Shown piece after piece: positions 35,775 through 64,000 of a DNA stretch of 64,000 bases. The notes under the pieces were generated by a model, which had not been told where the DNA came from, did no database searches, and saw nothing but the letters and a program-made list of their open reading frames with translations. Both the position numbers and the translations under genes were made by a program. How positions within the stretch are numbered: position 1 is the first letter of the stretch; each line of letters starts with the position of its first letter. The stretch comes from a virus, in the IMG/VR virus record IMGVR_UViG_3300045988_113151; one strand, given 5' to 3'.

Positions 35775-36323
35775 ATGTTACATTTCTTTGATATAGTAGG
35801 AGGAGAAGTAGTAATACATGCAGACTTATGGGCACTACCGCCATTTGAAAAACTATGGAATCTAGATAAAGATCCTACTAAAGCTCACGCTAATAAGGTA
35901 GTAAAATTTATTATACTATGTGATTACTGGAATAGCCCATATGTAAAGAGTATTAGTAGCACTGAGCTTAGAGAAAAGAAGTTAAAAGAAAGGATATTTA
36001 AAGATGAAAATTACTCTCTTACTTTAGATGAATAGATAAGCAGAGATGAGTATAAAGAGCTTATTAACACTAGAAACCTTAAGATGCTAACTTCTATTAT
36101 GAACAAATTAGATACTATCAGTAATTACTACGAATCCTCCTTAGAGGAAGAATTAGATGAAACCAAAATAGGTAAGTTGTTAGCAGGATTTGAGAAAGTA
36201 AAAGGTACAATGCAAACTATAGATTTTCTAGAAAAGTCTGTTAAAGCAGAAGAGCTCGATAATACTAAAGTTAAAGGTAATTCTCAGATTAATCCATACG
36301 AGTTGGTAAAAAAAGTACAGTAA
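35775..36323 (+). CDS. hypothetical protein with in-frame TAG at 36033
   Basis: ORF-track fragments 35775-36035 and 36084-36323 share one frame and are separated only by TAG plus 16 sense codons. Confidence 0.55.
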
Positions 36324-36373
36324 CCTGTAACATAAAAAATAAAGTTACGTTTTACAGAAAAAATAAAGAAACT

Positions 36374-36592
36374 ATGAAAAAGAAGAAATTTTATACCAAG
36401 AAAGAAGAAGTTTATTTAGATTTGACAAATCCTAATCAGACAGTTGGTGAAGCTATTGCACAATCGAATGCTGAAAGAAATGCTATCAAAGAATCTGTTT
36501 ATGAAATTATAGAAGAAAAGATGGCTGAAGAACCAACAAAAAAATCTAAATGGTATACTAAGTTTTGGAATAAATTAAAGAACTTATTTTAA
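36374..36592 (+). CDS. hypothetical protein
   Basis: ORF track. Confidence 0.5.
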   Translation: MKKKKFYTKKEEVYLDLTNPNQTVGEAIAQSNAERNAIKESVYEIIEEKMAEEPTKKSKWYTKFWNKLKNLF

Positions 36593-36635
36593 AATATATG
36601 TCTAACGGGGATAGACATTAAACATTCCCCGGCAC

Positions 36636-36707
36636 TCTCCTGTGATGTAAAGGTAACATATTGAGCTCTAACCTCAAAATTGTCCGTTCGAGTCGAGACC
36701 AGGAGGA
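36636..36707 (+). tRNA. amber suppressor tRNA (anticodon CUA), probably Gln-type
   Basis: TCTCCTG-TG-ATGT-AAAGGTA-ACAT-A-TTGAG-CTCTAAC-CTCAA-AATT-GTCCG-TTCGAGT-CG(A)GAC-CAGGAGG-A. The anticodon CTA is at 36668-36670. There is a U1.G72 wobble and a one-nt bulge in the T stem. U1 and the GGTAA D-loop resemble tRNA-Gln. Confidence 0.75.
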
Positions 36708-36742
36708 CTAATAAAAAATAATTTAATGTTACTATCACAAAT

Positions 36743-39700
36743 ATGATAGACTTCTAGAAAAAAATATTAAATAGCAATAAGTTTAGACAAGCCTGTATTC
36801 AATTTTAGAATACAGGCTCTTATTGTTCATATCCTTCAGGAACATCTGAATACTATCAATTCTGGGATGAAGAAATGAACAGATGTATTAATGGTTATAC
36901 TACCGATGATGGTGATTACATCACAGGGTATAACTATTTTTATATAAACTATTGCCCTATACAAAGAATAGTACATACAGTAAAGAAGTTGCCAGATGGT
37001 ACTACTAAAGTAATAAAAACTAGATCATTATAGTTTCCAGACTTTTATGACTATGACTATTACTTTTTCTTAGCAATGACAGAAGCTGAAGAAAAAGGTA
37101 AACATATGTGTGTACTTAAATCACGTCGTAAAGGTTACTCTTATAAGAATGCAGCAATGGCATGTCGTAACTATTACTTAATACCTAACAGTAAGACTTA
37201 TATATACGCTTCAAATAAACAATATCTAACAGAGGATGGTATACTTACTAAAGCATGGGATTACATGGACTTTATAGATAAAAATACTGCTTGGGGTAAG
37301 AAGAGATCTGTGAATACATCAATGCGTAAAAGAGCTGGTTTCTTTACTAAAGATGAATTTGGTAATGAAATAGAAATGGGTTACAAGTCTGAAATAATTG
37401 GGGTATCCCTAAAAGACAATCCAGATGCAACTCGTGGTAAAGCTGGTAAACTTATTATATTTGAGGAAGCTGGTTCTTTTCCAGAATTAGGAGCTGCATG
37501 GTAGATTGCTAGACCTTCTGTAGAACAAGATGGTATAGCATTCGGAACAATGGTAGCATTTGGATGTGTGTGTGCTGGTACTAAAGTATGGACAGCTAAT
37601 GGTAAGTGTGTATCTATTGAGGAACTCAATCCTAAAGATGGTATAATGGGGTGGGATACATATTAGGCTTATCCTCAAAATATATCTAATGTAAATCCTC
37701 CAGCAAAAAAACCATGTTTAAGAATAACTACTAATACTGGTAGAACACTAGAGTGTAGCACAGATCACCCGTTGTTATGGTCTACTCCAGGTAAAACAAA
37801 AAGAGTACCTGGAAAAAGGAAAGAAAATGAACGCATGAAATCATGGTTATGGCACAAAGCTGAACTATGTAAAGTGGGAGATCAGGTTGGAGTTATTGAT
37901 GAAGTACCTTATTTTGGTGACAAGAAAATGTGGGAACCAAGATTAGTAGGATGGTTGATAGGAGATGGTAGTTATGGTAATAATAAGACACCAATACTTA
38001 GTAATTGCGATGAATATATAAACAATTATATATTTGAGAACTTTAATGCTAAAGTAGAAAAATCCTATCTTACTAAAGATAATAAATTATACTGTGAAAC
38101 TAGGATCAAGGGTATATGTAAGAATTTAAGAGAACTAGGTATATATGGACAAACTAGAGGTAATAAAACATTACCTATTAACATAGATGATTATGATTTT
38201 GAAAGCTTATCAGAATTAATAGGAGGACTATACGATACAGATGGCTATATTAGAGTAGACAAAGATGGGAGAGTGAGAGTAATACTTACTCAAGCTTATG
38301 ATACTTTATTAAAACAGCTTCAGATATTGTTAATTAAATTTGGTATAAGCAGTTCTATTCGTTATATAAAATATAAAAATGAAAGAGTTCATATATCAAA
38401 CGGGAAAACTATTAGATCTAAGAATGGGGAGTACAGATTAGAAATAAACGATATTACAAGTGTGTGTAAGTTTGCTGATAGAATTCCTCTAACAGTTCAA
38501 TACAAGTAGTCAGCTTTAGATATGATATTACTATTTTCTTAGAAACATATAAATAAGTATAATAAGTATTTATGTGGCGTTCACGCTGAAAGAATAGTAA
38601 GTATAGAAGACATAGGACTACAAACAATCTACAATCTTACTGCAAAAGAACAAAATAATTACATAGCTAATGGTATAGTAACTCATAACACTGGCGGTGA
38701 TCCAGGTAGTAGTTTTGAAGCTCTTAGAGACATGTTCTATAATCCAGACGGATATAATTGTTTATCATTTGAAAATATATGGGATAGTGCAGTAAGTAAT
38801 ACTAAATGTGGGTTCTTTATACCTCAGTATACCAATCTAGATATACGTAATGAGGATGGCAAAAGAATATATATGGATGATGATGGTAACACTAATGTTA
38901 AGCTGTCTCTACAATATATACTCGATGAGCGTAAAATAGTAATACAAAATGCTACTAGTTCTGTTGCTGTTGATAGATATGTTGCTGAAAGATGTATTAC
39001 TCCTTAGGAAGCTTGTTTGGAATTTAACGGTAATATATTCCCTAAAAAAGAACTTCAAGAATAGCTTGGTTTAATACGTACAAATAAAGCACTGTAGAAC
39101 CATAAACAAGTTGGAGATCTTATATTTGATCAGTCTGGGTAGTTGAAATGGATACCTAAGAAACTTGGTGATATTACTAAATATCCTTTAGGTAAGGATG
39201 ATGACCCAAAAGGTGCAATAGTAATATGGGAACATCCAGTTAAAGATGCTCCTTCAGGATTATATATAATAGGAGTAGACCCTTATGATCATGATTAGTC
39301 TGGTACAAATTCTTTAGGATCATCTATAGTGTATAAAAGATTTCAGAGCTTTGAATCTTATTATGATATTATAGTAGCTGAATATACTGGTAGACCTGCA
39401 ACAGCGGAAGAGTATTATGAGAATTTACGCAAGCTAGCGATTTACTATAATGGTAGAATAATGTATGAAAATGAACGTAAAGGTTTGTTCCCTTATTTTA
39501 CAGCAAAGCATTGTGATTACTTATTAGCAGATCAGCCTGATATAATAAACGATATAGTAGGTAATTCTAAAGTACAACGCAAAAAAGGCTGCCATATGAA
39601 TAAGCAAATAAAACAATGGGGTGAAGGCATGATTAAAGACTGGTTAAATGAGGAGTATGCACCAGGTAAGAAAAATCTTACTAGAATACTATCTGAACCA

Positions 39701-39925
39701 TTATTAGAAGAACTAATAAGCTATAATGATACTGGAAATTTTGATAGAGTGATGGCTTTAATGCAGGTAATGATATACAAAGAGTAGTTATATAACGTTG
39801 TTGTAAAACAGAAAGAAAAAGAGAATAAAGCTAAGCTGTTATTTGATGGGCCAATCTTTGCGCAGAGTTGGTTCCAAGATGACAAACCAAATATCAGTAA
39901 TGACGATAATGTATATACATTTTAA
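36743..39925 (+). CDS. terL: terminase large subunit (TerL), intein-containing, about 13 in-frame TAG codons
   Basis: All fragments (37076, 37772, 38732, 39329 and the manual 36743 start) share one frame. Motifs: GYNYFYINYCPI, FPDFYDYDYYFF, CVLKSRRKGYSY, KLIIFEEAG, FG|TGGDPGSS, IIGVDPYDHD. It ends at TAA 39923-39925. Confidence 0.85.
37565..38689 (+). mobile_element. intein with LAGLIDADG homing endonuclease in TerL (375 aa, three in-frame TAG)
   Basis: It starts CVCAGTKVWTANGK. Block B is LECSTDHPLL. LAGLIDADG motifs are LVGWLIGDGSYG and LIGGLYDTDGYI. It ends ..NYIANGIVTHN followed by +1 Thr. The extein junction reads MVAFG|TGGDPG. Confidence 0.85.
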
Positions 39926-39927
39926 TT

Positions 39928-42417
39928 ATGAAGAATTTAAAATCAATGCCGATTTAGAAACTCTCTATGTTCAAAAAGAATAAGGAGTGGAGGCAAGCTT
40001 GTGTAGACTATATCATAGGTGCTAGTGATTCTGGCTAGGGTAATTTAAATAGAGATAGATCTGATGAAATGCAGACTTACTATGATTTGTACAATAGTAT
40101 ATATAATGAAAAGGATCTAAAGTATGTTACTAATCCATTTAAACAAGATGATGGATTCCCTGCTACAGCTTAGGACTATAATATAATAAAGCCATACATA
40201 GATCAGTTACTAGGAGAAGAAACTAAAAGACCGTTTAACTTCTATATAGCTAGAACTAGTGATGATGCTGCTAGTGAACTTCAAGAGAAAATGAAACAAA
40301 TGCTAATGGACTATATCTATGCTACTATTACTAGTAAACTAAGCCCAGAGCAAGCAGCTAGATATGAACAAGCATTAGCTACTGGAGAAATTATGACTCC
40401 TGAGTAGATACAAAAATATGTTAATAAAGATTATAAGGATATAGCAGAAACCACAGCATATCATACGCTATAGTATCTTAAGCGTAAATTGAATTTGATA
40501 CACGAATTCTATAAAGGGTGGAAAGATGCGTTAATAGCTGGTGAAGAGATTTATTATGTTGGTATAGTAAACGGTTAGCCATATACAGAAAGAGTAAATC
40601 CTATGTACTTTAGGTATGAACAATCTTTAGACTTAGAATTTATTCATGAGGCTTCATGGTGTTGTAGGAAAATGATTATGTCGGCTACAGAACTATATGA
40701 TAGATTTTATGATAAAATGTCAGAAAAACAGCTGAACGATTTACTAGATTTAATAGATGAAAAACCAGGTACTTCTCCTGAAATAAGGAAAACATCTATG
40801 GATTACACTCACTATAAAATGTCTAGCATAAATGGTTTTACTGCCAACCCTTTTGATGCTAATCATATTACTGTATATCACTGTTGTTGGAAATCATTTA
40901 AAAAGATAGGTTTTGTAAGTATAACAGATCCATAGACTGGAGAAATAGAAGAGATACAAGTAGATGAAACTTATAAACCTACTGGTAGAGAAAACTATGT
41001 AGAATGGAAATGGATAGTTGAAACTTGGGAGGGTTATAGAGCTAATGATGATGAATATATAGGTATTCAACCAATAGAATATCAACATATATCAGCAGAC
41101 AATCCTAATTCATAGAAGTTACCATATACTGGTGTTGTATATAATAATACTAATAGCAGACCTAGATCTTTAGTAAGCATGATGAAACCTTTACAATATA
41201 TGTATATTGTAGTATGGTACAGACTTGAATTAGCTATGTCTAGAGATAAAGGTAAAGTAGCTTTGATAGATGTTACTTAGATACCTAAAGGATTAGGTAT
41301 AGATGTAAATAAATGGATGCATTACTTAGGAGCATTAGGTGTAGCATTTATTAATCCTTATGAAGAAGGTTGGGATGTTCCAGGACGTGAAGGTGGTAGA
41401 CCAGCTCAGTTTAATCAGTTTCAATCATGGGATCTTAGCATGGCTAATGTGATAGACCAGTATGTAAACCTAATGGCTAAAATAGAAGATATGGTAGCTA
41501 AACTTACTGGTATTACTCCTTAGAGATAGGGGCAAATAGCTCCAAATGAGCTTGTGTCTAATGCTAGTACAGCAGTAAGTATGTCTTATCATATTACTGA
41601 ACCTTGGTTCTGGACACATAATCAAGTAAAGAGAGAGGTTTTAACAATGCTATTAAATACAGCTAAGGTAGCTTGGAAAGACAATAAAATGTGCTTGAAT
41701 TATATACTAGACGATGCTACCAGAGCTTTTCTTAAATTATCTGATAGATTCTTCTATGAAGATATGGATGTGTTTATTGACGATAGTACTAAGAATAGAC
41801 AAGACTTAGATGCTCTTAGAAATCTTATGTAGCCTGCTATGCAAAATGGTGCTAGTTTACTTGATATAGCTGAAATAGTTACATTAGACAATGTAAATAT
41901 GATTAAGAGTAGATTAGAGGAAATTGAGCAGAAACGTATGGAACAAATGCAGCAACAACAACAAGCTGAGCAGCAAGCTCAACAAGAACTAGTTGAAAAA
42001 CAAAATCAAATAAAAGAAGAGGAGTTGATGATTAAAGAAGCTGAAATGGATCTTGAAAAATATAAGATAGATCAAGATAATGCTACTAAAATTACAGTTG
42101 CTCAATTAAATGCTTATAGAGGGTCTGAGAATATGGATCAAAATGAAAACGGCATACCAGATCCTATGGAAATAGCAGCTCAGGCTTTAGAAGAAAGAAA
42201 ACAGGCATCAGAAGAAGCTTCTAAACAATTTGAGTTCAATAATAAGCGTAGAGAAGTAGAGATGAAGAAAGAGATTGAAGATAAAAAAATTCAACTTGAA
42301 AAGGATAAAATCCAAGCTTAGAAAGAATTACAAGCTCAAAAAGATAAAGCTGCAATGGAAAGAGAGAGATTAAAAGCTAAGACTGCAATTAGGAATAAAG
42401 TAACAGGAGAGCGTTAA
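39928..42417 (+). CDS. portal protein (829 codons, about 13 in-frame TAG)
   Basis: Fragments 40603, 41317, 41554 and 41839 are in the same frame as ATG 39928. It follows TerL. It has a Q-rich coiled C-terminus and the sequence ITP-TAG-R-TAG-GQIAPNE. Confidence 0.75.
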
Positions 42418-43895: not shown

Positions 43896-45104
43896 ATGGA
43901 AAAAGAAAATAAGATTACTTTAGGTGGATTTGACGCTATACTTGATAGCTTCATCCCTAATGTAAATAAAAATGTTGAAAATATCATTGCAGACGATTCT
44001 GTTGAAGAAGATGAATTAGATAATATTAAAAAGAATCAATTCGATCCTATTACAGATAATATAAAAAAACAAAAGGACAAGAAGGACGATAAGGCAGAAG
44101 ATTCTAAAGACGATGTTGCTGATCCTGATGAAACAGATGATAAGTTAGATATAAAATAGAAGTCTAACGATTCTAAAAAGAATAACAAAACTATAGATAA
44201 AGTAGATGAAAAAGATGAATTAGATGGTGACGTCGATGATGAATCTACTGAAGTAGATAGTAATGTAGTAAGTAACTTCTTTGACGCTATTGCTGAGAAA
44301 TTAGGTTGGGATATTAATGAAGAGGATGAAGATAGTAAACCTAAGGATGTAGACAGTCTTATTAAATATTTTCAAGATATTATAGAAGAAGAAAGCAAAC
44401 CTACTTATGCTAGTGAGGAAGTAGAAGCACTTGATAACTTCGTAAAACAAGGTGGAGATCTTAAACAATACTTACAGATAGATGCAGAGTTGGATCTAGA
44501 TGATATTGATATGGAAGATGAGTCTAATCAAAAGTTAGTAGTAAAACAGTTCTTAAAAGAAAAAGGTATTAGTGCTAAACAAATAGAAAAGAAAATATCC
44601 AAGTATGAAGAAGCTGGTTTACTTGAAGATGAGGCTCAGGATGCATTAGAAAGTCTTAAGGAGATAAAGGAAGATAAAAAAGAACAGCTATTATTGGAAC
44701 AGAAAAAACAATATGAGCGAATGGTTGCTAACCAACAGAAATTCTATAATAGCGTTGTCTCTGAAATAAAAGGCTTAAAAAATATACGTGGTATTACGGT
44801 CCCTGAAAAAGACAAAAAAGTATTAATAGATTATATACTTAAGCCAGACACCGACGGTAAAACTAAGTACCAAAAGGACTATGCTAAAGGTGGTGTAAAG
44901 AACTTAATAGAATCAGCATACTTTACTATGAATGCAGATAAACTATTAGAAGCTGCAAAAAAAGCTGGAAGTAACTCAGCTATTGATAAGTTTAAAAATA
45001 GTTTAAAAACAACATCTGTAAATACTCGATCTAAACAAATATCAAAGAGTAATGATGATGAGCCTATTTGGTCAAATATTGCACGAAAACTGCGTATATC
45101 ATAA
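43896..45104 (+). CDS. scaffolding-like protein (acidic, coiled-coil; TAG at 44157)
   Basis: Fragments 43896 and 44490 share a frame. It has D/E/K-rich composition and lies immediately upstream of the capsid gene. Confidence 0.55.
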
Positions 45105-45142: not shown

Positions 45143-46612
45143 ATGGATAACAATATTTTGAACTCGTTGGTCCTTTATAAAGGAAAATGGTTTAGCGATT
45201 TGATTGATACTAATAAAATCAGTCTCGCTTCTCAGCAAAGACCTTACGAGGTATCTACTATCCTGTCATACGTATTTGGTACTAAAGATAATGGTTACAG
45301 TACTTCTCTGGATATGTTGACAGGAGGTCTTGGTAACGTAATGACTATTGACAAACCGTCATTTGAATGGGGCGTAATGATTGATCAGGACAGAGCCGTT
45401 ACAATTCGTGATGCAAAATGGAATGGAACTACTATTTCTGAAGATTCTACTCCTGGTCTTGGTAATACCCCTATCACACTGTGGTTAGAAGATAGCTGGT
45501 TTGGACCTGGTGCTACAGTAGAACTTGATGACAAGAGTCAGTTGCGTTTCGCTGATGCTCCTTATCAGGATGGTAACTTATTCGTTTATACAGGTTTCAT
45601 TGCTAATGGTAACCCTGCTTCTTACATTAATCCTCGTTATTTGCAAGCTGGTTGTCAAGTATCTCGTTTGGCATCTGCTTATGAAGAATACAGTGAAGAG
45701 GCTGATATCCTGAACTACAATACTCACTTCAAGATGCGTAACTATTTGACTACAGTTCGTTTGTCTTATGATATTACAGGTTCTGCATACTCTGAAGTAA
45801 TGGCCATTGCTTTGAGAGATCCTAAATCAGGTAAGACTTCTTACTTATGGTCAACTTTCCAGGAATGGGTAGCTATGCGTGAATGGTATAAGCGTCTCGA
45901 AAGAGCTTTGGTATATAATCAGAACAACGTAAATAAGGATGGTTCTTGTAACTTGAAAGGTAAGAACGGTCGCCCTGTATTTATTGGTGCTGGTTTGTTG
46001 GAACAGATTGCTCCGTCTAACAGACGTTATTACACTCGTTTGACAGCAGAATTACTGGAAGACTTCTTGTCAGATTTGTCTTACAATGTACTTGGTACTA
46101 ACGAACGTAAATTCATCGGTTTGACTGGTGAAATGGGTCTTCGTGAATTTGACCGTGTACTGAAAGAAAAGATGGCTAACTTGAACATGATTGATACTGT
46201 ATTTGTATCTGGTTCTGGTGAAAACTTGAAATTTGGTGGTCAGTTCAAAACTTATGCTATGAGCAACGGTATTGAACTTACTTTGAAGTACTTCCCGTTG
46301 TATGACGATTTGACTCACAACCGTCAGTTGCATCCTGTAACATTGAAACCGCTGGAATCTTACCGTATTACTTTCTTGGATCTTGGTCGTCGTGACGGTG
46401 AAGCTAACGTAGTTAAAGTAGTTCGTAAAGATCGTGAATTCGTTAGCTGGTGTACTGCTGGTTCTGTAACTCCTGCTGGTTACGCTCACTCTAATACTGA
46501 AGTTCGTTCTAACGCTAAGGACGGTTATGCAGTACATTTCTTGGGTGAATGCGGTATTATGTTGAAAGATCCTCGGGCGTGTGGGGAATTGATAATGGAT
46601 TCACAAGATTGA
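45143..46612 (+). CDS. major capsid protein
   Basis: A 489-aa ORF after the scaffold gene. Codon usage is distinct (cgt/ggt/ctg-rich, higher GC), typical of the most expressed gene. It contains no TAG. Confidence 0.65.
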   Translation: MDNNILNSLVLYKGKWFSDLIDTNKISLASQQRPYEVSTILSYVFGTKDNGYSTSLDMLTGGLGNVMTIDKPSFEWGVMIDQDRAVTIRDAKWNGTTISEDSTPGLGNTPITLWLEDSWFGPGATVELDDKSQLRFADAPYQDGNLFVYTGFIANGNPASYINPRYLQAGCQVSRLASAYEEYSEEADILNYNTHFKMRNYLTTVRLSYDITGSAYSEVMAIALRDPKSGKTSYLWSTFQEWVAMREWYKRLERALVYNQNNVNKDGSCNLKGKNGRPVFIGAGLLEQIAPSNRRYYTRLTAELLEDFLSDLSYNVLGTNERKFIGLTGEMGLREFDRVLKEKMANLNMIDTVFVSGSGENLKFGGQFKTYAMSNGIELTLKYFPLYDDLTHNRQLHPVTLKPLESYRITFLDLGRRDGEANVVKVVRKDREFVSWCTAGSVTPAGYAHSNTEVRSNAKDGYAVHFLGECGIMLKDPRACGELIMDSQD

Positions 46613-51238: not shown

Positions 51239-51774
51239 TAAAAGGAGAATATAAAACTGCATGTAGGCTAAAAGAATAGACTAAGTATAATATTGACTAT
51301 GATAGCTGTCAAATACTTAATTTAACTTGTGCTAATTACATATATGATTTAATTTAGCAGTCTACTAAATATGAAATAAGTTTAGAATCTATAAAGAAAA
51401 TGTTAGCTATGATATATGAACTACTAGGTCATGAAATAAAATATACTATTCCGCAATATATTGGAGATAAAAAGGAGTGCTATTATGGAGTTGTAGCTAA
51501 TGACTTTGTAACAGATTCTGAGAATATAAAACAATTAAGTAGTGTATTTCAAAGTTCTAATAATTTTACTGATATTTTTAGTACCAACTATCAAAAAATA
51601 CTATATGCATACCCTAGTGAGTTTGGGGATATTAGTAGTATTAAAGATTAGAATCAATTTGAAATAAGAGAGTCATTTGAAAAGAAAACAGTAATCATAG
51701 ATAATATACAATACAATGTGTATATATTAAAAGATGCGAGTTCTGTTGATAATTATAAAATATATTTTGTATGA
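51235..51774 (+). CDS. hypothetical protein (in-frame TAGs)
   Basis: The manual start MIKGEYKTACRLKE-TAG-... is in frame with fragment 51400-51651. It ends at TGA 51772. Confidence 0.45.
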
Positions 51775-54700
51775 TACAAGTAGCTGATAATTTTAATTAT
51801 AAAAGTATGAAAGACTACTCGGATAATAATATAGATGAAGGTCATATATCATATTGCATAGAAACTGATAAACATTATAAGTTCAATTCAAATAACGATA
51901 TAGATTCTACTACTGGTAAGTTTAGAGAGTTTATAGAAGGAGTATTACCTGATGAAGAAGATATAACATCAAACAACGATGATAAGTTAAAGTTTGCAGA
52001 TAGAAAGTACAATCCTGAGAAGTTTAGCGGTAAAGGCTACAAAATACTTAGAAAGAACATACAAGATGGTAAGAACATACTATCACAAAGTATGATAAAC
52101 CAACAGAATACTGTATATGAAATTAGATATGATTATGATCTGGATAACTAGGAAATTACTATACCTGAAGGTAGTACTTTGAAGTTTGAAGGTGGTAGTT
52201 TAAGTAATGGTACATTAATAAATTGTAGTAGTATAGACGGAAATAAAGTTTTCAGAAACATTAAGCTAGACAATAGTGTAAATGTAGATAATCTTTCAGA
52301 TTCTATTTTCGGAAATGACTATATAATAGTCAATAACGAATTAGAGTTACAGTAGGCTATACAACATTTTAATGAAAGTAATTTGAATATTACTATATAT
52401 ATAAGAAATAATATATATAGCAGTGGATTAAATATAACAAATAAGATAAATACTTTAAAGATAATTGGAGGTAAAATTATATACTCTAAGTAGATTATAA
52501 ATATAACTAAACAAAATTCAGAAACTCCTACACATTATATAGTAAAATTATCTTCAGATTATAGCATAATGGATCAATTTCAAAGCGACAATAAACTTTT
52601 ATATTGTGGTGAAAATGATACATACATGTTAAATGACAAGATGAAAGCTTATAATATAAGTTCTAACATAGAAATTGATAATTTATACGAGTCTGTTACT
52701 AATGAAGATGTATATATAAGAGCTAAAATAGATAATGATCTTTATACAAAATTAGGTGATTTAGATGTTGAAGATTGCAGAAACTTAATATTTACATATA
52801 CATCAGCTTGGGTAAATTTTTATGTTAATGTGCACCATATATCTGAGGGATATCTATATTTTAAAAATATTATAAATGACTCAGATGTTTATAATATGTA
52901 TATTAATGGAGACTGGTCACACAATACTAAAGCTAGATATAAAATATTAAACTCTATCAAACTATTGACTTCTGATACAATTTGTGTAGATAAGAATAAT
53001 AATTTGTATATACCTAAATATATAACTAATGTTTATTACACAGATAAAGGAAGTTATATTATAAACGGCTCATCTAATCTAGAAATATATAATTGTGAAT
53101 TTTTTGGTGGTGATATCCAAATAAACAATAGCAATAATTTAACAGTGGAATCATGTACATTTAGTAATTGCTATTAGAGTATTGTTATACCAGCTAACTC
53201 CTCAAATAAAATTAGTATACAAAATAGTAACTTCACAGATATTTACAAAGAAGGCATTTTTGTAAGCAACGGCAATGACAATTGCAATATTATTAATAAT
53301 TACTTTAAAAATACAGGAATTATAATATATAATGATGGCGCTAGTATAAATGTTAATTCTGATAATTGTTATATATATAATAATAAAATAGTTAATACAT
53401 ATACTGGTATTAGAGTAGGTAATACTAGGTCATTTTCATCTTATAATATAAGTGCGGGTATATATCATAATGAAATAATAATAGAAGAAGATTTTATAAA
53501 TGGTAATAACAGTCTCAATGACTTAGGCGTTATTTATATTTTTACCCATCAAAATGGACATAATCCTTTAGGAGATGGAACAATAGTCAAAGAAAATATT
53601 ATAATAAACAAATCTTCTTCAAATAATGCAAATGGCATATATTTTGATGATGGAGCTTATAATTCTTCTGCTATAGGCAATTATATTAAGGGGTTCTCTA
53701 TAGGTCTAACTTCTAGAACTGTAGAAAGTACCTCTACTCCAAACAATAACCTAAATAAGAATAATAAATTTGAATACAATATTATTATAGAAGGTATAAT
53801 AGTTATAGGTGGTAGAACTGATAAAATTAATTTACCTGTAGTATATTCTAATATTATTTTTACTAAAACCAAATTAATTAATATTTTTACTAACTTAAAC
53901 GAATAGAACAATAGCGTTCTTCTATGTAATTATTATAGATTAAATGGTGATACTATATATGTTCCTAAATCTTTAATAAGTTACTTATGTAGTTATATTG
54001 GATTAAGCTCTTTTATTTCTAAGAAATTATTAGATATTAGAGCAGATAGAGAAGCTGGTTATTTAACTAAAGTAGAGCTTCCAGTTGATTGCGAATTCCA
54101 ATATCTAAACGATTCTAGTATTAGTTATAAATATGTTGTAACACGATTCAAATTATCTTATGAAGATTCTAAAAGTACCACAATATATAAATTAAGTATT
54201 AATAGTGACGTATTCAATCTTGCTGGTGAAGTAAGAACTAGATATATTTCAGATAGATGGTATGTAGATTTTGTTCCTGTTAGTATATCTACTTTTATAA
54301 ATTTAATAGAATATAAAATAGATAATACGTATTTATATATTAGATTTAGCGCTAATACTGAACTTTTAAATAGTGCTTTTTCCAGTGAATTATATTCAAA
54401 AATATGGAATTAGTTATTGTTTGGCTATTGTACAGCTATGAAACCCACTTCTACTTTATAGGGTAAAAGTGATGACAGTACTGATATATCTTATATTCAA
54501 TCTTATTGTTTTCAGCAAGAGGCTCTTTATATGAAAGCATATTATGAGAATGAAGACGATGGCGAATGGAAATCTCTATTCAACTCATCTTATTATTTCT
54601 CTAGAAATAATAATAATATATTTATTGAAGGCAAAGATAAAGCTAAATTGTTATTATTTTCTTATAGTACAGCTGCAAATCCAGATGTAGTATATCAATT

Positions 54701-54980
54701 TGCTAGCAAAGATTTAGGCATTAGGAAAAACATATCTAAATTTTATTTTAAAGATAATAATTCTTTAAAATATTATAATGACGGTACTGTATATAATATA
54801 AACGGTGATATAGATAATACTAGAGGCACTTTTGCTTAGAAACCAACTTAGGGTATACAAACAGGTTTTGCTTACTTCTGTACTGATAAGCAGACAACTG
54901 AAGGTTCTAGAGATGGTATTATGATTTATTATGCTGGAGATAACACTTGGGTAGATGCTCTTGGTAGAATAGTTAGTTAA
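51771..54980 (+). CDS. tail fibre/tailspike with right-handed beta-helix-like repeats (1069 codons, about 9 TAG)
   Basis: Fragments 51771, 52569 and 54531 share a frame. It has repetitive N/I/G-rich segments such as NSNFTDIYKEGIFVSNGNDNCNIINNYFKNTGIIIYNDGASINV. It ends at TAA 54978. Confidence 0.65.
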
Positions 54981-55001: not shown

Positions 55002-58000
55002 ATGGCACAGTATGCAACTAAAGATGAATTAAATGAACTAGTAGTACTAGTAAGAAATCTTCAAGGTGATATTAATACTCTAGATACTAGTGTAGGCGAG
55101 CTTGACACACTAGTAGAGAGAATTAACCATCTAGCTACCTTGAAAGATGTTACTATTACCTATATAACTGAAGGAGACCTACTATAGTACTCTAGTGATG
55201 GTACATGGCATAATATACAACCATCAGCTTTAGGTATTGGAGGTGAAGGAGGTGGTGGTATTGTTGATACTTCCGTAGTTAAAGCAATGATTAAACAAGA
55301 AGGATCTAAACTGTTCCTTAGTAAACTACAGGATGATCAAGCTGCTGGAATTATTACCTTCAATAATGGTTTAGTAAGTAATAAAATGACTTATTTAAAA
55401 GAAGGTGTACAAATAGGTCATTTCGTATCAGGTATGATTGGTGGTACAGGAGCTCAAATAGACAAGGATGGTAGAGGTGAAATGACCAGTTTGATCCTTA
55501 GAGAGTTTCTAGAAGTACCTGAGTTGAGATTTAACAAGATAGATGTTGTTAGTGGTGAATTATGGAACTCTATAGCATTTGGTACTATTGAAGATGTAGA
55601 TATAGCAAACTAGATTGTTACTGTTAAACTAGAAGAAGGTGAATATAGCGGCATCAAAGTAAATGATATATGTAGAGGTATATTCCACAATTTAGGTTCT
55701 GGTAATGATACAGAGTCAAAACCTGATGAGAATGGCTTTGATACAGTAGCTGGTTTCAGTACGTCTTACTTTACACCTATTGAAGTATTAGACTCTTTTG
55801 GTAAGTAGTTTAGATATACTTTAAAACCTGGTACTACACAACATCCTAGTAAGTCAATGAAGTTCGTTGTATATGGTAACTTTACAGACCCTAATAGACG
55901 ATCTAGTGCATATGCAACAAGAACATACAAAAGATACTTAAAAGACGTAAATACATGGCAAATAGACTGGACTAATATTGCATCATAGTTTGGTTTACTA
56001 GACGGTCTTAATATACCAGGTGGACCTAATGATGGTAATCTTACTGGTGATGGTGCTTATCTTACTAATGTATATATGACAGGTGCACTTATTCAGTTTA
56101 CTCCTGAATAGATGGATGAAATGAAAGGTCATGATGCATATTCAGTATCATTAAGTAGAGAAACAGCTACTATTATACTTGATAACAATTTAAATATTAT
56201 TGATGAGTATAATCAGTTAAGTCAATTGACATTTGCTATTCAAGCATTTAAAGGTCCAGTAGAATTAGCATATAGTGATGTATACGGTGAAGGTACATAC
56301 TTCGTAGAGTATGAAGCCACTGGTCTTAAGTGTACTATGAGTAATGGAGTATTTAGAATTACTGAAATTACTAATGTTAGTGACATGCGAATAAAGATCA
56401 CTGTAAACTGTGAAGGATTAGCTTTATTTAAAAAGGAATTCTTACTTAATTATCAGTTAGAAGGTGATGCTTTATGGGTAACGTATAATGATAATGATGC
56501 AGTACCTAACAGACCTACTGGTAGAGGTGAAACTGATGGTTGGCATAGAAACTATACAGCCAGTGCTATATGGATGTCAACTAAGAGTTCTAGAAGAATT
56601 GATGAAGGTGAATGGGGAGATCCAGTAAGATTCGTAGGAGCTTCTGTACAGGGTGAAGATGGTCAGTATACAGTATTCTGTTATACTAATTCTAGTGTAC
56701 AACCAGAAACACCTACAAGTACATAGATACCCCCTTCTGATTCATTAACTACTTGGTATATGTATCCACCAGAAAGAGAAAGTACAGATGTATTTACTTG
56801 GATGACTCAAGCTACAGTATATGCAGATAAATCATTATCTGGTTGGACTAAACCTATTAGAATTACAGGTGAAACTGGTGAAGATGGTTCTGATGGTACT
56901 AAGATAGAATTTATATATACTTTGTTTACTCCTACTAATGATAAACCAAGACCTGATACTCCATCTACTAGTCAATAGGATGATTACATACCATTTGGAT
57001 GGTCTGATAATCCACAAGGTGTATCTAAAGAAAAACAGTATGAGTGGATAAGTACACGTGAAAAGAAATCAGCTAAGTTAGGTGAAGGATATTGGGGTGA
57101 ATTTTCATAGCCAGTTGTATGGTCTAAATGGGGAGAAAAAGGTATGGATGGAGATGGTTATGAGTACATATATACTCGTACTTCTGATGTAGATAAAGTT
57201 CCAGCAACCCCTTCTTCTATACAATAGAATGATTATATACCTACTGTATCAAATGGAGGTTCTACAGATTATGATTGGTCTGATGATCCTAAAGGAGTAA
57301 GTGAGACATATAAAGCAGAATGGACATGTAAACGTGTAAGAACTGATGGTGTATGGTCTGACTTTAGTACTCCAGCGTTATGGTCTAACTGGGGAGAGCA
57401 AGGCTTATCAGGAGGTCATTACCAATATAGATGGAAAGTGTCAAGTACTAAACCTTCTACTACTCCAGATAACGATTCTTCATGGTCTACTAATAGTGAA
57501 CAAGCTATTGAGAAAGGTCAATATGTGTGGTAGATTCAACGATTTGTTAATCCAGATGGTACTACTACTGAGTGGAACAATATAATTAGATTAACTGGTG
57601 CTGACGGTAAAGATGGTGAAGATGGTAATAGTATCGAATTCTTATATGCTCGTAATAGTACAGGTAAGATACCACAAAAACCAGCTGATAATCAAATTGA
57701 TGATTGGACAGGTACTGGACCAGATGGTACAGAATGGACTGATAATCCACAAGGAGTTACACCTAATATAATTTATGAGTATGTATGTCAGCGTTATAAG
57801 GATAAAGCTACTCAATTATGGGAACCTTATTCCAATCCTGGTATATGGGCTAGATATACTGAAAGAGGTAAAGATGGTGATGGATATGAATATATCTATA
57901 TAAGACAATCTACATGGAAATCTCAAGGTCAATTGAATCCTAGCTCAGACCCAGTATATATAACAGATGGCAATATATACCCACCAGCAGATGTAGAGTC

Positions 58001-59624
58001 AGACGCTTATCAAACTGATGACTATGTTCCTGTCGGTTATTCTGACAATCCAGAAACTGTAAACAGTTAGATAAGATATCAGTATATGTGGGCTAGAAAG
58101 AAAGAAGGTGGTAAATGGCAAGCTTGGAAGAACGGTTCATTGTGGACTAACTTTGCAGTAGATGGTGAATAGGGTGAGCCTGGTGAACCTGGTACTCCAG
58201 GAGGTAGTATAACAGTTAGCGGTGCTCCAGCTTCTATTAGATCTAGATTAGGTTTCTTACAAACTACTAATTGTACTTTAAGAGCTATTCGTACTAATAC
58301 TTCTGGTATTACTCAATCTGCAAGTGGTAATTATGCTGTTTACTATAAAAGTAGTTCTAGTGGTAGTTGGTCTAAAGCCGATAGTGGTTCAGGTACTAGT
58401 TACTAGTTATCTTGGTCTTCTAGTTTAAATGCCGAATATTTCTGGTTTGGATTTAGTACAGATGTAACTCCTAGTCCTACAGGTACGTATAATGTATGGA
58501 GTGTTGAAGTACCAGTAGTATATGACGGTAAAGATGGTTCTGACGGATCTGATGGTTCTGACGCAGATTCTAGTTATACTCTTATGAGAGATTGTGGTGT
58601 TTGGAACTCTGGAGCATATTATTATAATGATAAAGCTACTAGCGCTATGAACAGTAGTGAGTATATTAAATATCAGAATTATAATAATATGTATGTAGTG
58701 GATTATGTAGTATGGCAAGGCGTTACTTACTTAGCTAAGACAAACCACAGTAATGTTCAACCACCTAACTCTTCATATTGGGAAACTTCATCTAAAGTAA
58801 CAGCTTTGACTGTTAACAATCTATTAGCCAATAATGCTAAACTAGGAGAGTTTAATTTTAGTGGAAACACATTTACATCATCTACTGGTACATTATCTCT
58901 TAATAGTTATAATGGCGAATTATGGTGTAGTAGTGCTCATATAAATGGTGTAATTCATGCAACAAGCGGCTCGTTTACTGGTACAGTAAATGCAACAAGT
59001 GGTACGTTTAATGATATTACTGTATAGTCTGGTAATATAGCTGGCTTTAAAATATCAGGAAATAATTTGGTTAATAATGCTACAAATGCTAGTATACAAT
59101 TCTCATTAACTGGTAGTCAATTTTTGCAGATAAATAATAGTTCTTACACAGGTCTTATAGATGTACGTAGAGATGGAGGTACAGCTATTAGAGCTCAAGC
59201 TTATGGAAGCAATTCAACTGGTTTATCAGTTGCTGCTCAAGCAGGTTATGCTACTAGCGTTAAAGCAATAGACTCTATTGGTAGTTGTCAGTTTGTAACT
59301 AGAGACTCAGAAAGAATATTAATAAACGGTTTATGTGTTAATACTGTAACAGTAACTAGCAGTTATAATGCTAAAACTAGCGATGACTTTATAGTATGTA
59401 ATAATACTGGTGCTATTACCATTAGTCTCCCTAGTGTAGGAACATTCTATAAAGGTAAGATATATTACATAAAACCTACCAATACAGGTAACTGGACCGT
59501 TAGTGGTGGTATCAGGTTAGCTGACCAAAGAGGTACAAAATACTCTCAATCGTATAGTGATAATAAGATAAGAGGATTTATATTTGATGGTAGCTATTGG
59601 AATGAAATGTTCTTTAGTAATTAA
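55002..59624 (+). CDS. giant tail fibre protein (1540 codons, at least 14 TAG) with internal repeat modules
   Basis: Fragments 55002, 55287, 56112, 56760, 58584 and 59067 share a frame. Modules of the type DDYIPFGWSDNPQGVS..YEW recur about five times. There is a short collagen-like GEQGEPGEPGTPGG segment. Confidence 0.7.
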
Positions 59625-60109: not shown

Positions 60110-60203
60110 GATACTAGAGTATGATGTTGATGATAGAGGTGTAATCGTTGATGAAAGAGAAAAAGATCGCTATGCTAAGCAGTAGGATAGTAAGGAGAAA
60201 TTA

Positions 60204-61211: not shown

Positions 61212-61432
61212 GATACGTTATAGTAACAATAGAATGGTGCTTGGAACACGGTATAGTAGTTCCTGAACACGCAAGAAAGAATATTGATGGTACTAAAGTA
61301 ATCTTACACGAAGATTGGTTAAAACCTATTCTTTATAGAGAAGATGAAAAGCAAGTAGAATCTTACTTCTATGACAGTAAAGAATTAAATGATATTCTTA
61401 ACACTGAAGAGTGGAATGGAAAGGAGGAGTAA
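61208..61432 (+). CDS. hypothetical protein
   Basis: ORF track. Confidence 0.45.
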   Translation: MRYVIVTIEWCLEHGIVVPEHARKNIDGTKVILHEDWLKPILYREDEKQVESYFYDSKELNDILNTEEWNGKEE

Positions 61433-61890
61433 TGGATAGAAATAAGTTAATTGAAGAAGTTAGTAAATACTTCAACATAAAAGAACTAGTATGTCCTCAT
61501 TGTTATAATAAGTTTAAAGATAACTCATGGTAGTTCATATCAACCGAGTTACTAAGTACTTTATATGTATTAAGAACTGTAGTAATAAATAAACCAATGG
61601 TAATTAATACTTGGGCTACTAATGGTAGTTATAGTCAGAGAGGTTTAAGATGTAACATGTGTTAGTTAGTAAAGAGTAAAACTAGTATATACATGTCAGC
61701 TCATAGTTTAGGTAAAGCTATAGACTTTCATGTACCTGGTATGGATGCAGAATCTGTTAGAAATCTTATAAGAGCTAACGTAGATAAATTCGAGTATCCT
61801 ATAAGAATAGAGAAGGATACGAATTGGATTCATATCGATAATTACCAGCAAAAGGGCTCTTCTAACAAACTTTCTGAGTTTGTAGGATAA
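61432..61890 (+). CDS. peptidase M15 family endolysin (two in-frame TAG)
   Basis: The manual start MDRNKLIEEVSKYFNIKELVCPHC... is in frame with fragment 61693-61890. Motifs: SAHSLGKAIDF and NWIHID. Confidence 0.7.
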
Positions 61891-61942
61891 GTTAATCAAT
61901 TACACATAGAAAGTGTCTTAAAACGCCTTAAAATGCGTCATT

Positions 61943-62272
61943 ATGGAAAAGCAAACAATATTATATAATATATTATATATTGATGAAAGAGCTAAGAATC
62001 TAATACCAGAAGTAGTAGATGCTTGGAATATTACTCCACATAGATTTAGTAAAAGTGGTGAATCAGTATCATTAAAGTTAAATGATACTATAGAAGAAAT
62101 TAAAGGTTACAGTACTTCAGATTTTGTAGATATAGAAGTTACTAGAAAAAGTATTATTATTACTTTACAACCTAATACTACTCAAGGATCTAGATAGGCT
62201 AGAATTACTTTAAGTATAGGTGGTAGGGAACATTCTACTAAACTGTTGCAATTTGTAATACACTAGAATTGA
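61943..62272 (+). CDS. hypothetical protein (TAG at 62195; end ambiguous, TAG 62264 or TGA 62270)
   Basis: The ORF-track fragment plus an in-frame continuation ARITLSIGGREHSTKLLQFVIH. Confidence 0.45.
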
Positions 62273-62292
62273 TAATTGTAAAATATACGTAT

Positions 62293-62868
62293 ATGGTTAA
62301 AATTATTGAGAGCTATACAGCTCCAAATCCGAAAGAATACACATACTGGGTAGATCTAACCAGTAATCCAAATAAAGGTGTTATTAAGTATTTTAAAGGT
62401 AATGGTAAATGGGCAGATGTCAATGATAAGACTAATGACGATTAGTCTAAAGACATTGAACAGTTACAGAAATCAGTAGATAACTTAAAGTCAACTAAAG
62501 TAGATAAAGTATCAGGTAAAGAACTTTCTAGTAATGACTTTACTGACTCTTATAAGAGTAAGCTTGATGGTATAGCAGCTCAGGCTAATAAATACGTTTT
62601 ACCTGCTGCTACTGCATCTGTTTTAGGTGGTGTAAAGACTGGTGCTAATATCACTAATACTAGTGGTACTATTAGTCTGACTAAAGCGAATGTTACGGCT
62701 GCTTTAGGTTATACTCCTCCTACTGCTGATACTAAAGTTAATGTTAATAATACTCTAACAAGTACTAGTATAGTTGACGCTTTGTCAGCAGCACAAGGTA
62801 AAGTTTTAAAAGATTTAATTGACGCACTAACTGCTAGAGTTTCTGCATTGGAAACTCCAGCTGCATAA
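62293..62868 (+). CDS. fibre protein (191 codons, one TAG, ends ..ETPAA)
   Basis: Manual translation MVKIIESYTAPNPKEYTYWVDLTSNPNKGVIKYFKGNGKWADV... Its N-terminal motif is shared with the next gene. Confidence 0.55.
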
Positions 62869-62878
62869 TATATGAAGT

Positions 62879-64000
62879 ATGGATACAGTAAGATTTTTTG
62901 CTGCTAATACCCAACCTAACCCAGTAGAAGTTGACTACTGGGTTGACCTTTATGATAACCCTTATGGTGGTAGCATTAAATATTATAATGGTACAGAATG
63001 GGTAAGATTAGCAGCTTCTGGAGGTATTCCAGATTTAAGTAAGTACTATACTAAAGTACAAGTAAACTAGTTACTTAATGATAAAGCTAGTGTATAGTCA
63101 GTTGAAAGTAAAGTAGACGATGAAGAGGTAAAAGATGTAGTTAAGAATATCACATTTAGAACTTCTAATCCAAACGAAGTACAAATGGTACTCGCAAAAT
63201 ATGATACTACCACTGTTGCTATATCGTTACCTAAAGCTAGCAATGCTTCTGCTGGTATAGTTACTTCTGATGATTTTAAAGACTTTGTTAAGTAGGCAGA
63301 ACTTCAGCAATTATATCAAGAACTATACGATAGTAATAGTACTATAATTAATACTATTAATGATATAAAAGCTAAATACCAAAAGAAACTGACAGCTGGT
63401 AGTAACATAAAAATATCTGATGATAATGTTATATCAGCTATTATTTCAATTGATGGAAGTGATATAGATATTGATGGTATTAATAGTAAAATAGACGGAC
63501 TGACTGATAAATTACAGGAAGAAGTTACTAGGTCTACTAATGCTGATAATAAACTTACACGCGATTTAAGCGCTGAGTCTACTACTGCTAGAGCTGCTGA
63601 GAAAAAGAACGCTGATAATATCGCTAGCAATACTCAAGCTATTCAGAAAGAGGTAACAGATAGAAATGCTGCCATTAAGGTAGAGACTGACAGAGCTACT
63701 GCTGCTGAAAATAAATTAGCTAATGACATTGTTACTACAGTTGAAACAGAAAAAGATAGAGCAGAAGGTGTAGAATAGGTTATAATTAATGATTTAGCTG
63801 AAGAAGTAACTAGAGCCAAAGCAGCTGAGCAAGCTAATAAGACTTCTATAAATAAAGAAGTTACCGATAGACAATCAGCTATTGCAACTGAAGTAGATAA
63901 TAGAAACGCAGCTATAGAGGTTGAAAAACAAAGAGCTCTCAAAGCAGAAGCTGCATTAGATTCTAAGATTGCTACTCATACTAATGAAATTAATACTGCT
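62879..64000 (+). CDS. long coiled-coil fibre protein, continues beyond window (in-frame TAGs)
   Basis: MDTVRFFAANTQPNPVEVDYWVDLYDNPYGGSIKYYNGTEWVRLA..., followed by repeats of the type EVTDRNAAIKVETDRATAAENKLAND. The frame is still open at 64000. Confidence 0.6.

Follow-up and report, generated by a model that had tools for sequence, protein, structure and literature searches.

The window, a 64,000-nucleotide stretch of IMG/VR virus record IMGVR_UViG_3300045988_113151, by its gene content and closest matches represents about two-thirds of a genome from the family Suoliviridae of crAss-like gut phages. It is organized as two divergent arms, a minus-strand arm of replication and early genes from position 1 to ~29 kb and a plus-strand arm that carries the late genes (Table 1). 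Profile searches identified the Crassvirales hallmark genes TerL and portal and a Crass-type major capsid protein (MCP), and found no function for the late genes at 48137, 49639, 50705, 51235, 59587 and 60072 in PHROG and Pfam. The scaffold-like gene is labeled 'regulatory protein RecX' in RefSeq relatives. The best DNA and protein matches include cr6_1, cr4_1, cr53_1 and cr109_1, and all of the best matches are classified as Suoliviridae; the block comprising a tRNA, TerL, portal and MCP is collinear with Suoliviridae relatives. The phage belongs to a known kind, of which it is an ordinary example, and its recoding adds no new principle.

Table 1 Features of the window, with the evidence for each and its in-frame TAG codons
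Feature	Position	Strand	Evidence	In-frame TAG and stop
Resolvase-like gene	3530-3908	-		TAG at codon 31 from the ATG (plus-strand 3812-3814)
Replication-arm gene	12977-13483	-	cr6_1 alignment ends exactly at the TAG, the cr6_1 CDS end	True TAG terminator
HTH regulator gene	30959-31333	+	Pfam HTH_Crp_2	TAG at 31082, earliest in-frame on the strand
Small gene	31609-31857	+	81% identity with cr6_1 across the TAG	Read-through TAG at 31723
182-aa gene upstream of tRNA	35775-36323	+		Read-through TAG at 36033
Suppressor tRNA, anticodon CUA (reads UAG)	36636-36708	+	ARAGORN; Rfam tRNA, 42.5 bits	
TerL, 1060 aa	36743-39925	+	phrog_6681 (E 3e-147); codon alignment with 7 relatives	13; ends TAA
LAGLIDADG intein in TerL, aa 275-649	37565-38689	+	Pfam Intein_splicing, LAGLIDADG_3	3
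Portal, 829 aa	39928-42417	+	phrog_6547 (E 4e-155), residues 11-813	13; ends TAA
Small zincin-like protease, 117 aa	42419-42772	+	phrog_15610 (E 1e-38)	3, of 5 Gln-type codons
Scaffold-like acidic protein, 402 aa	43896-45104	+		1, of 18 Gln-type codons
MCP, 489 aa	45143-46612	+	Pfam Crass_capsid (E 1.6e-203)	0, against 13 Gln codons; ends TGA
Beta-helix tail fibre or spike, 1069 aa	51771-54980	+	Pfam Beta_helix	9
Giant fibre, 1540 aa	55002-59624	+	Syntenic cr6_1 gene is 'straight fibre tail protein'	14
Endolysin (M15-type peptidase), 152 aa	61432-61890	+	phrog_894 (E 4e-19); weak Pfam Peptidase_M15_3	2

The genomes closest to the window are cr6_1 (Afonbuvirus faecalis, RefSeq NC_055894), cr4_1 and cr53_1, which share with it the order small ORF, tRNA(CUA), TerL, portal and MCP. 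The portal proteins of the window and cr6_1 are 76% identical, and the TerL and portal genes of the three relatives contain 6-15 in-frame TAGs each, several at positions common with the window. RefSeq annotates the tRNA of these genomes as tRNA-Gln and their coding sequences through the TAGs. The window carries a TerL intein and, unlike the cr6_1 group, has no homing endonuclease between its tRNA and TerL; it also encodes a tRNA-Arg and an SsrA-like RNA, neither of which Rfam detects in cr6_1. The SsrA-like RNA is also annotated in the standard-code genome cr50_1, and for this reason we rejected a connection with recoding.

With TAA and TGA as the only stops, plus-strand ORFs tile positions 36722-64000 almost without gaps. 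Coverage of this interval by plus-strand ORFs of at least 75 aa rises from 46.8% under code 11 to 96.3% with TAG read as sense, as compared with 46.9% and 53.0% when TGA or TAA, respectively, is reassigned as a control. Between 36743 and 64000, 85 in-frame TAGs are spread over 18 of the 23 genes, which bears out an earlier, sequence-only reading of this DNA in which TAG is a sense codon across the late arm. The approximate tallies in that reading (about 13 TAGs in TerL, about 13 in portal and at least 14 in the giant fibre) match exact counts of 13, 13 and 14, and the three TAGs that it placed in the TerL intein lie at 37664, 38507 and 38540. True gene ends were likewise given as TAA or TGA; the 22 late genes that end inside the window stop at TAA (n = 15) or TGA (n = 7) and none at TAG, a result that is partly by construction. 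No plus-strand gene requires a TAG terminator.

Under code 11, the same genes appear as fragments, and this raw ORF picture, and nothing else, would suggest that the fragments are real, whether as pseudogenes, as assembly errors or as genes that yield truncated products only. The late genes are, however, broken by TAG alone: the fragments of each gene lie in one frame with motifs running through, as previously noted, TAA and TGA never interrupt and there are no frameshifts. Full-length profile matches align straight across the TAGs, as for the portal profile over nearly the whole protein. Conservation persists past every TAG, and more than ten independent assemblies agree on this pattern, with many TAG positions in common. 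We regard the fragment explanation as effectively refuted and assign it virtually no probability.

Recoding begins thinly at 31 kb, becomes dense at 36.7 kb and stays so to the end of the window; the recoded arm includes TerL, portal, capsid accessories, fibres and endolysin. The TAG density is 1.9 per 1000 codons (four TAGs) at 29.8-36.6 kb and 9.6 per 1000 directly after the tRNA. All four of these in-frame codons precede the tRNA on its own strand, by as much as 5.5 kb. The sites at 31723 and 36033, which had been taken as the first clear in-frame TAGs on this strand, are genuine read-through sites but not the earliest, as the TAG at 31082 precedes them. The HTH regulator is 64% identical to cr6_1 gp87 on either side of its TAG, and the alignment of the 182-aa gene with seven relatives runs past its TAG to a conserved NPYEL C-terminus. 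The small gene between them contains a second TAG, at 31825, that is a candidate read-through site only.

On the minus strand, TAG behaves as a terminator. Among the minus-strand ORFs of 80 aa or more, 24 end at TAA, 7 at TAG and 3 at TGA (34 in total), and none of the long ORFs is broken. From these stops, we read the minus-strand arm as written in the standard code, with TAG ending about one-fifth of its genes. The 3' contexts of sense and terminator TAGs show no clear difference in a comparison with few terminators. The seven TAG stops, one of which coincides exactly with the stop of its homologue, argue against a host that itself reads TAG as sense and whose code the phage merely mirrors, with no temporal switch. 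Such a host would be compatible with the window, which contains no pointer to the host, and with the frequency of suppressor tRNAs, reported in only ~40% of TAG-recoded phage genomes in the survey data available to us. The phage nevertheless carries its own tRNA(CUA) under purifying selection, and the literature, as far as it was available to us, reports standard-code hosts for recoded crAss-like phages. We therefore consider a recoded host extremely unlikely.

The resolvase-like gene is the only recoded gene on the minus-strand arm. Its TAG is also present in cr6_1 gp45, with the N-terminal 30 aa conserved, and aligns with Lys in five other relatives, and the cr109_1 and cr53_1 genes have a TAG at codon 4 instead. 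Recoding is not strictly confined to the late arm, and the code boundary is not sharp, given the four TAGs that precede the tRNA and the one within the standard-code arm. The occurrence of resolvase TAGs at two positions in different lineages may reflect a gene-by-gene timing gate.

The suppressor tRNA lies directly upstream of TerL, at the head of the densely recoded block, and supplies a decoding mechanism that was absent from the sequence-only reading. It is a class I tRNA with a 4-nt variable loop and a U1.G72 pair; the discriminator is A73, the T stem contains a bulged A and the CCA end is not encoded. The gene is kept upstream of TerL in 11 recoded relatives and is absent at this site in the standard-code genomes cr50_1 and cr118_1. 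Across seven distinct variants, all 21 base pairs are 100% paired and 11 of them show compensatory double changes, as compared with 31-50% pairing in shifted-register controls. ARAGORN labels the gene tRNA-Pyl. In a tRNA-Pyl, a single base separates the acceptor stem from the D stem, the D loop is very small, the anticodon stem has 6 bp and the variable loop 3 nt; in the window tRNA, these stems are two bases apart, the D loop has 7 nt, the anticodon stem 5 bp and the variable loop 4 nt. We rejected this assignment, as the label reflects the anticodon only.

Read-through could instead depend on another factor, such as RF1 inhibition or a host or modified tRNA, with tRNA(CUA) as an accessory. 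This alternative could account for the four TAGs upstream of the tRNA gene and for the recoded relatives cr124_1 and cr273_1, in which no tRNA was found in the 11 kb around TerL; an imperfect match of suppressor tRNAs with recoding is also noted in the part of the literature available to us. In the window's lineage, however, the tRNA is always at this site, with its structure conserved and its anticodon loop invariant, and it is the sole tRNA in cr6_1. The cr6_1 annotation lists no release factor (RF), RF-modifying or aminoacyl-tRNA synthetase (aaRS) gene, and none was detected in the window among the minus-strand ORFs without a cr6_1 match, of which the 10 largest (100 aa or more) of 13 were searched, with about one-third of the genome lying outside the window. 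We judge a decoder other than the tRNA to be very unlikely.

A scan for sigma-70 promoters and terminators around the tRNA gene returned 8 promoter-like sites against 5.0 +/- 2.3 expected. A hairpin at the 5' end of terL folds in most relatives when sequences are treated singly, but RNAalifold gave no consensus and the window helix is 57% paired across relatives.

Several lines of evidence indicate that TAG is read as Gln. In the standard-code homologues scored (cr50_1, cr118_1 and ProJPt-Bp1), 25 of the 59 cells aligned with window TAGs contain Gln, against a background of 5.2% (binomial p 5e-17), 8 contain Glu and 4 contain Lys; these homologues neither end nor show gaps at the TAG positions. 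BLOSUM62 sums over the positions opposite TAGs are 127 for Gln, 71 for Glu and 37 for Lys, making Gln the best fit by far. Among strains with 97-98% protein identity, 13 of the 15 TAG differences are CAG (9) or CAA (4), and the other two are GAA/GAG. The portal motif ITP-TAG-R-TAG-GQI, singled out earlier as reading naturally with Gln, is real: its first TAG aligns with Gln in 8 of 8 relatives and its second with Gln or Glu in 6 of 8. Two of the three intein TAGs align with CAA in the intein of cr53_1, the only one against which they were scored because the MAFFT placement of TerL inteins was poor for the window, cr53_1 and cr118_1. Together with the Crass_capsid match, the homologue and strain comparisons support the earlier proposal of TAG-to-Gln recoding in crAss-like late genes.

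The identity set of E. coli GlnRS comprises a weak 1:72 pair, U35, G2:C71, G3:C70, G10 and G73, and it may not represent the rules of the host. The window tRNA has the anticodon CUA, which provides U35, and a weak U1.G72 pair that is invariant in the seven variants (related suppressor types have U1:A72, U1.U72 or A1.C72), but it has C2:G71, U3:A70, A10 and A73 at the other positions. The cr6_1 suppressor, by contrast, has a canonical Gln-like acceptor with G2:C71 and G3:C70 and differs from the window tRNA in its acceptor and in the bulged T stem of the latter. This mismatch makes descent of the window tRNA from a canonical tRNA-Gln less likely, but not the insertion of Gln.

The departure of the acceptor stem from the E. 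coli Gln set is one reason to ask whether TAG is decoded as Glu, Lys or a mixture rather than as Gln. Three of the 13 portal TAGs align with a Glu that is conserved in nearly all relatives, the resolvase TAG lies opposite Lys in five, and other TAGs face a conserved Ser; if TAG is Gln, such sites would be conservative replacements at best. Gln is nevertheless the commonest partner, with the highest BLOSUM sum, and the strain swaps favor CAG/CAA over GAA/GAG. Orthologous TAGs are also common to relatives whose suppressor has a canonical Gln-like acceptor (U1:A72, G2:C71, G3:C70), and Gln has been observed by MS/MS in a Suoliviridae phage, according to the portion of that study available to us (Peters et al. 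2022, PMC9523058). Decoding as an amino acid other than Gln thus has little probability.

We consider it very probable that this Suoliviridae phage uses two codes, with TAG in the plus arm read as Gln through the phage's own tRNA(CUA). The tRNA would accumulate as infection proceeds, presumably charged by host GlnRS, and once charged would compete with host RF1 at UAG to yield full-length late proteins. Before this build-up, late mRNA would give short truncated peptides only; we infer that the TAGs would therefore gate the synthesis of virion and lysis proteins to the late phase. A test of this gate model found a weak skew of TAGs toward the 5' ends of genes, where the first 30% of the length holds 35 of 81 TAGs (KS p 0.054 against a uniform distribution and 0.078 against CAA/CAG). 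Two further readings, held jointly, are tentative and rather unlikely: that the window tRNA, with its invariant U1.G72, its acceptor stem unlike the E. coli Gln set and its conserved bulged A, represents a distinct suppressor lineage, and that TAG acts as a gene-by-gene timing gate beyond the arm-wide code. Suppressor tRNAs from several IMG/VR phage groups have the T-stem bulge too, with covariation, and close relatives carry different tRNA(CUA) bodies at the same locus. Rather than drift, these features and differences could be the result of selection, whether for charging, for binding to EF-Tu or for escape from host defences that target tRNAs.

The recoding matters mainly for annotation. 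The standard code loses half of the arm and fragments every large virion gene, so the window must be translated with TAG as Gln, as public gene calls of near-identical contigs and RefSeq relatives already do. The window also adds one more clean case of two codes in one phage genome, with a tRNA heading the recoded block and TAG terminators on the opposite strand. The recoded resolvase, the bulged-T-stem tRNA and a capsid gene that avoids TAG are minor additions on which comparative work on how recoding is tuned could draw.

A familiar counterpart of the window tRNA is E. coli supE, a tRNA-Gln with a CUA anticodon that acts as an amber suppressor by competing with RF1 for UAG and inserting Gln. 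The window tRNA, which would do the same, resembles supE in being a class I tRNA with the anticodon CUA, and the two have in common U35, A37 and a weak pair at 1:72. Unlike supE, the window tRNA is phage-encoded and serves a region with ~10 TAGs per 1000 codons, its acceptor stem and discriminator depart from the E. coli Gln set, and its T stem has an added bulge.

The recoding in the window is real, but it has already been described for this phage family, with validation by proteomics. As the sequence-only reading had correctly stated, TAG recoding of late genes is an established phenomenon: TAG-to-Gln (code 15) recoding is described, in the parts of these reports available to us, for Delta-group (Suoliviridae) crAss-like phages (Yutin et al. 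2021, PMC7886860; Borges et al. 2021, bioRxiv 10.1101/2021.08.26.457843), and metaproteomics proved TAG to be Gln at the peptide level, including in one Suoliviridae genome (Peters et al. 2022). As far as these accounts extend in the sections consulted, the published systems show no essential difference from the window, with TAGs mainly in the structural and lysis arm, a phage tRNA(CUA), standard-code replication genes and a TerL intein; the same sections mention neither a single recoded resolvase in the standard-code arm nor a suppressor tRNA whose T stem is bulged. Jade phages and Zeta crAss-like phages are reported, in the accounts as consulted, to read TGA as Trp with a 'code change module' of tRNA, TrpRS and RF1. 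They differ from the window in codon and amino acid and in these aaRS and RF genes, of which none was seen in the window, but the plan is the same: late and lysis genes use the reassigned stop, and the decoder lies just upstream in the standard code.

The window has a GC content of 30.7% and is organized in two divergent arms, with minus-strand genes from 1 to ~29 kb, plus-strand genes from ~29.8 kb to the window end and a sign change of GC skew at 29–30 kb. Its nearest genomes by megablast and tblastn are RefSeq Suoliviridae from human faeces, among them cr6_1 (Afonbuvirus faecalis, NC_055894), cr4_1, cr53_1 and cr109_1. The portal protein is 76% identical to that of cr6_1, and public assemblies hold contigs with proteins 97–98% identical, in which genes are already called through TAGs.

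With TAA and TGA as sole stops and genes called from the first ATG, plus-strand ORFs tile 36722–64000 nearly gap-free. Coverage of this interval by ORFs of at least 75 aa rises from 46.8% under code 11 to 96.3% with TAG as sense, a comparison that the sequence-only reading had proposed. Because coverage stays at 46.9% with TGA as sense and 53.0% with TAA as sense, the gain is specific to TAG. Between 36743 and 64000, 85 in-frame TAGs occur in 18 of 23 genes, amounting to 9.6 per 1,000 codons or 24% of Gln-type codons. The gene calls match exactly the earlier TAG counts for TerL, portal and the 1,540-codon fibre and bear out the three TAGs placed inside the TerL intein; all 22 late genes that end within the window stop, as had been claimed, at TAA (15) or TGA (7). 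Portal and TerL both match crAss-type PHROGs, and the portal alignment (residues 11–813) crosses every TAG but those at codons 10 and 798, the first and last of the gene. TAG is avoided by the MCP (0 of 13 Gln-type codons, against 24% arm-wide), as it is in cr6_1 and cr4_1, where the MCP count is also 0–1. The scaffold-like protein uses TAG for 1 of 18 Gln-type codons, and avoidance is a trait of these most abundant virion proteins.

Coordinates and properties of features in the window
Feature	Coordinates	Strand	Details
Resolvase-like gene	3530-3908	-	in-frame TAG at + strand 3812-3814
DNA polymerase gene	9737-11746		
tRNA-Arg(TCT)	11764-11837	-	69 bits
Gene with TAG stop	12977-13483	-	
SsrA-like element	22068-22472	-	tmRNA_permuted, 48.5 bits
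RAGATH-9	23627-23780	-	129 bits
Hatchet ribozyme	24887-25025	-	86 bits
Hatchet ribozyme	26928-27040	-	89 bits
RAGATH-14	27414-27650	-	169 bits
ThyX (thymidylate synthase) gene	31969-33744	+	large LAGLIDADG insert
tRNA(CUA)	36636-36708	+	
TerL	36743-39925	+	1060 aa, 13 in-frame TAG; PHROG E 3e-147
TerL hairpin	36790-36818	+	TerL codons 16-26
TerL intein	37565-38689		LAGLIDADG, aa 275-649
Portal	39928-42417	+	829 aa, 13 in-frame TAG; PHROG E 4e-155
Scaffold-like protein	43896-45104		
MCP	45143-46612		Pfam Crass_capsid, E 1.6e-203
GIY-YIG/NUMOD homing endonuclease	46695-47357	+	0/7 Gln-type codons TAG
Beta-helix fibre	51771-54980	+	1069 aa, 9 in-frame TAG
Giant fibre	55002-59624	+	1540 aa, 14 in-frame TAG
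Endolysin	61432-61890	+	152 aa, 2 in-frame TAG

Suoliviridae include both recoded and non-recoded genomes. In cr6_1, cr4_1, cr53_1, cr124_1 and cr273_1, TerL and portal carry 4–15 in-frame TAGs; cr50_1, cr118_1 and Azobacteroides phage ProJPt-Bp1 use the standard code and have none in these genes, and TAG terminates one of the two in cr50_1 and cr118_1. In codon-resolved alignments with these three standard-code genomes, Gln was the commonest residue opposite window TAGs (25 of 59 cells; background 5.2%, binomial p = 5e-17), followed by Glu (8 of 59), and the BLOSUM62 sum was highest for Gln (94 + 33, versus 53 + 18 for Glu). Among strains 97–98% identical, 13 of 15 differences between TAG and another codon involve CAG (9) or CAA (4), and the remaining two GAA and GAG; exchange with CAG and CAA is what synonymous change in a Gln codon family would be expected to produce. 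In the portal motif ITP-TAG-R-TAG-GQI, for which a Gln reading had been suggested, the first TAG is Gln in eight of eight relatives. Away from conserved Gln, three portal TAGs lie at conserved Glu and one at conserved Ser. Alignments, strain-level exchanges and a suppressor tRNA thus support the proposed TAG-to-Gln recoding of late genes in this crAss-like phage.

That tRNA, with anticodon CUA, was found by both ARAGORN and Rfam and ends 34 nt before TerL begins. The ARAGORN label tRNA-Pyl reflects the anticodon only and was rejected, as the tRNA has a normal class I cloverleaf. A tRNA(CUA) lies in the same position in cr6_1 (as its sole tRNA), cr4_1, cr53_1 and eight metagenomic relatives, and RefSeq annotates those of relatives as tRNA-Gln; the site lacks one in standard-code cr50_1 and cr118_1 and, likewise, in cr124_1 and cr273_1, which are recoded. 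Further variants of the window type came from an IMG/VR pattern scan. In a set of seven distinct sequences, each of the 21 cloverleaf pairs shows 100% pairing, with both-sided changes in 11, versus 31–50% pairing in shifted-register controls. The U1.G72 pair is invariant, and the T stem has on its 3′ strand a bulged A (GTCCG / CG-A-GAC) that is kept while the adjoining pair covaries. The same CGAG(R)C bulge, with covarying flanking pairs, occurs in tRNA(CUA) of other IMG/VR contigs (L025–L104), some at least 175 kb long, and the tRNA(CUA) bodies present at this locus in close relatives are of at least three kinds. With C2:G71, U3:A70 and A73, the acceptor stem departs from the E. coli GlnRS identity set; the cr6_1-type tRNA has G2:C71 and G3:C70. 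Since orthologous TAG positions are common to phages with either type, the inserted residue is most likely the same for the two. No release factor or aminoacyl-tRNA synthetase gene was found among the window's larger minus-strand ORFs without a cr6_1 match or in the cr6_1 annotation. A short way upstream of the DNA polymerase gene lies a tRNA-Arg(TCT) with no counterpart in cr6_1.

On the minus strand, 34 ORFs of at least 80 aa stop at TAA (24), TAG (7) or TGA (3), no long ORF is broken by TAG, and one TAG stop (gene 12977–13483) coincides exactly with that of the cr6_1 orthologue. Judged from these gene ends, TAG genuinely terminates genes on this arm, and this speaks against a host that itself reads TAG as sense. 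The sole recoded gene of the standard-code arm is the resolvase-like gene, whose TAG and preceding N-terminus are conserved in cr6_1; five relatives conserve Lys at this position, and in cr109_1 and cr53_1 the TAG is at codon 4 instead. On the plus strand, read-through TAGs precede the tRNA at 31082, 31723 and 36033, with a candidate at 31825. The sequence-only reading had named 31723 and 36033 as the first clear in-frame TAGs; both are read through, but 31082 is earlier, so its first TAG was off by one gene. TAG density steps from 1.9 to 9.6 per 1,000 codons directly after the tRNA.

The best-supported model is the published temporal switch. Early and replication genes would be read with the standard code of the host; the phage tRNA(CUA), which host GlnRS presumably charges with Gln, would then allow UAG read-through, so that virion and lysis proteins would be made only late. 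Which enzyme charges the tRNA, when the tRNA is expressed and what regulatory end the switch serves are all inferred. TAG gating of a resolvase that acts late would agree with this timing. 5′ enrichment of TAG within genes, a test of the gate idea, gave only a weak trend.

Several mobile and structured elements accompany these genes. Near-identical strains differ in whether TerL has the intein: one related sequence (L011, 2902–4959, ~97% identical proteins) encodes an intein-free TerL of 685 aa, and the window and three others (L012–L014) encode the 1,060-aa form. The ThyX insert, starting from Cys56 (CYTGETEVLT...), is probably a second intein, and gene and insert lack in-frame TAG. The free-standing GIY-YIG endonuclease follows the MCP gene and, unlike its neighbours, contains no TAG; in relatives, other homing endonucleases lie between tRNA(CUA) and TerL or after the MCP gene. 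The structured RNAs clustered in the early region at 23627–27650 (-) appear to be a family trait, because the corresponding cr6_1 region also holds such RNAs (RAGATH-9, Hatchet, RAGATH-7-assoc, group I intron, RT-17). The SsrA-like element, an ARAGORN permuted tmRNA (tag VRNDKSFVTDYTRIAA*; Rfam threshold 47 bits) adjoining a 36-bit tRNA-like match, is homologous to DNA annotated 'transfer-messenger RNA, SsrA' in cr114_1, cr125_1, cr60_1, cr52_1, cr10_1 and cr50_1; a tie to recoding was rejected because cr50_1 is standard-code. The TerL hairpin, a perfect 11-bp helix with a 7-nt loop followed by CTTATTGTTC, has TAG 36806 at its loop edge. Most relatives, standard-code ones included, also form a strong hairpin close to this position, but in differing registers; RNAalifold found no consensus among relatives, and over 10 sequences pairing in the window's helix amounts to 57%. 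The hairpin might act in attenuation, as a processing site or in packaging.

TAG recoding in the window is confirmed as real, correctly interpreted and already known. Only three details are mildly new: a suppressor tRNA variant with U1.G72 and a bulged T stem, which evolves rapidly by compensatory change; a recoded resolvase gene standing alone in the standard-code arm; and TAG avoidance in the capsid gene. That such recoding is established agrees with the literature. Yutin et al. 2021 (PMC7886860) describe reassignment of TAG to Gln or of TGA to Trp in 243 crAss-like phages, most of them Beta, Delta or Zeta; it falls mostly in late genes, and suppressor tRNAs are present. Borges et al. 2021 (10.1101/2021.08.26.457843) report standard-code replication genes and one alternatively coded structural/lysis unit in crAss-like phages and propose a temporal switch, and Peters et al. 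2022 (PMC9523058) report Gln peptides at TAG in two crAss-like phages. A review places one of these two in Suoliviridae, equates Delta with that family and notes its TerL intein. The window shares with the published recoded crAss-like phages every membership feature open to test.
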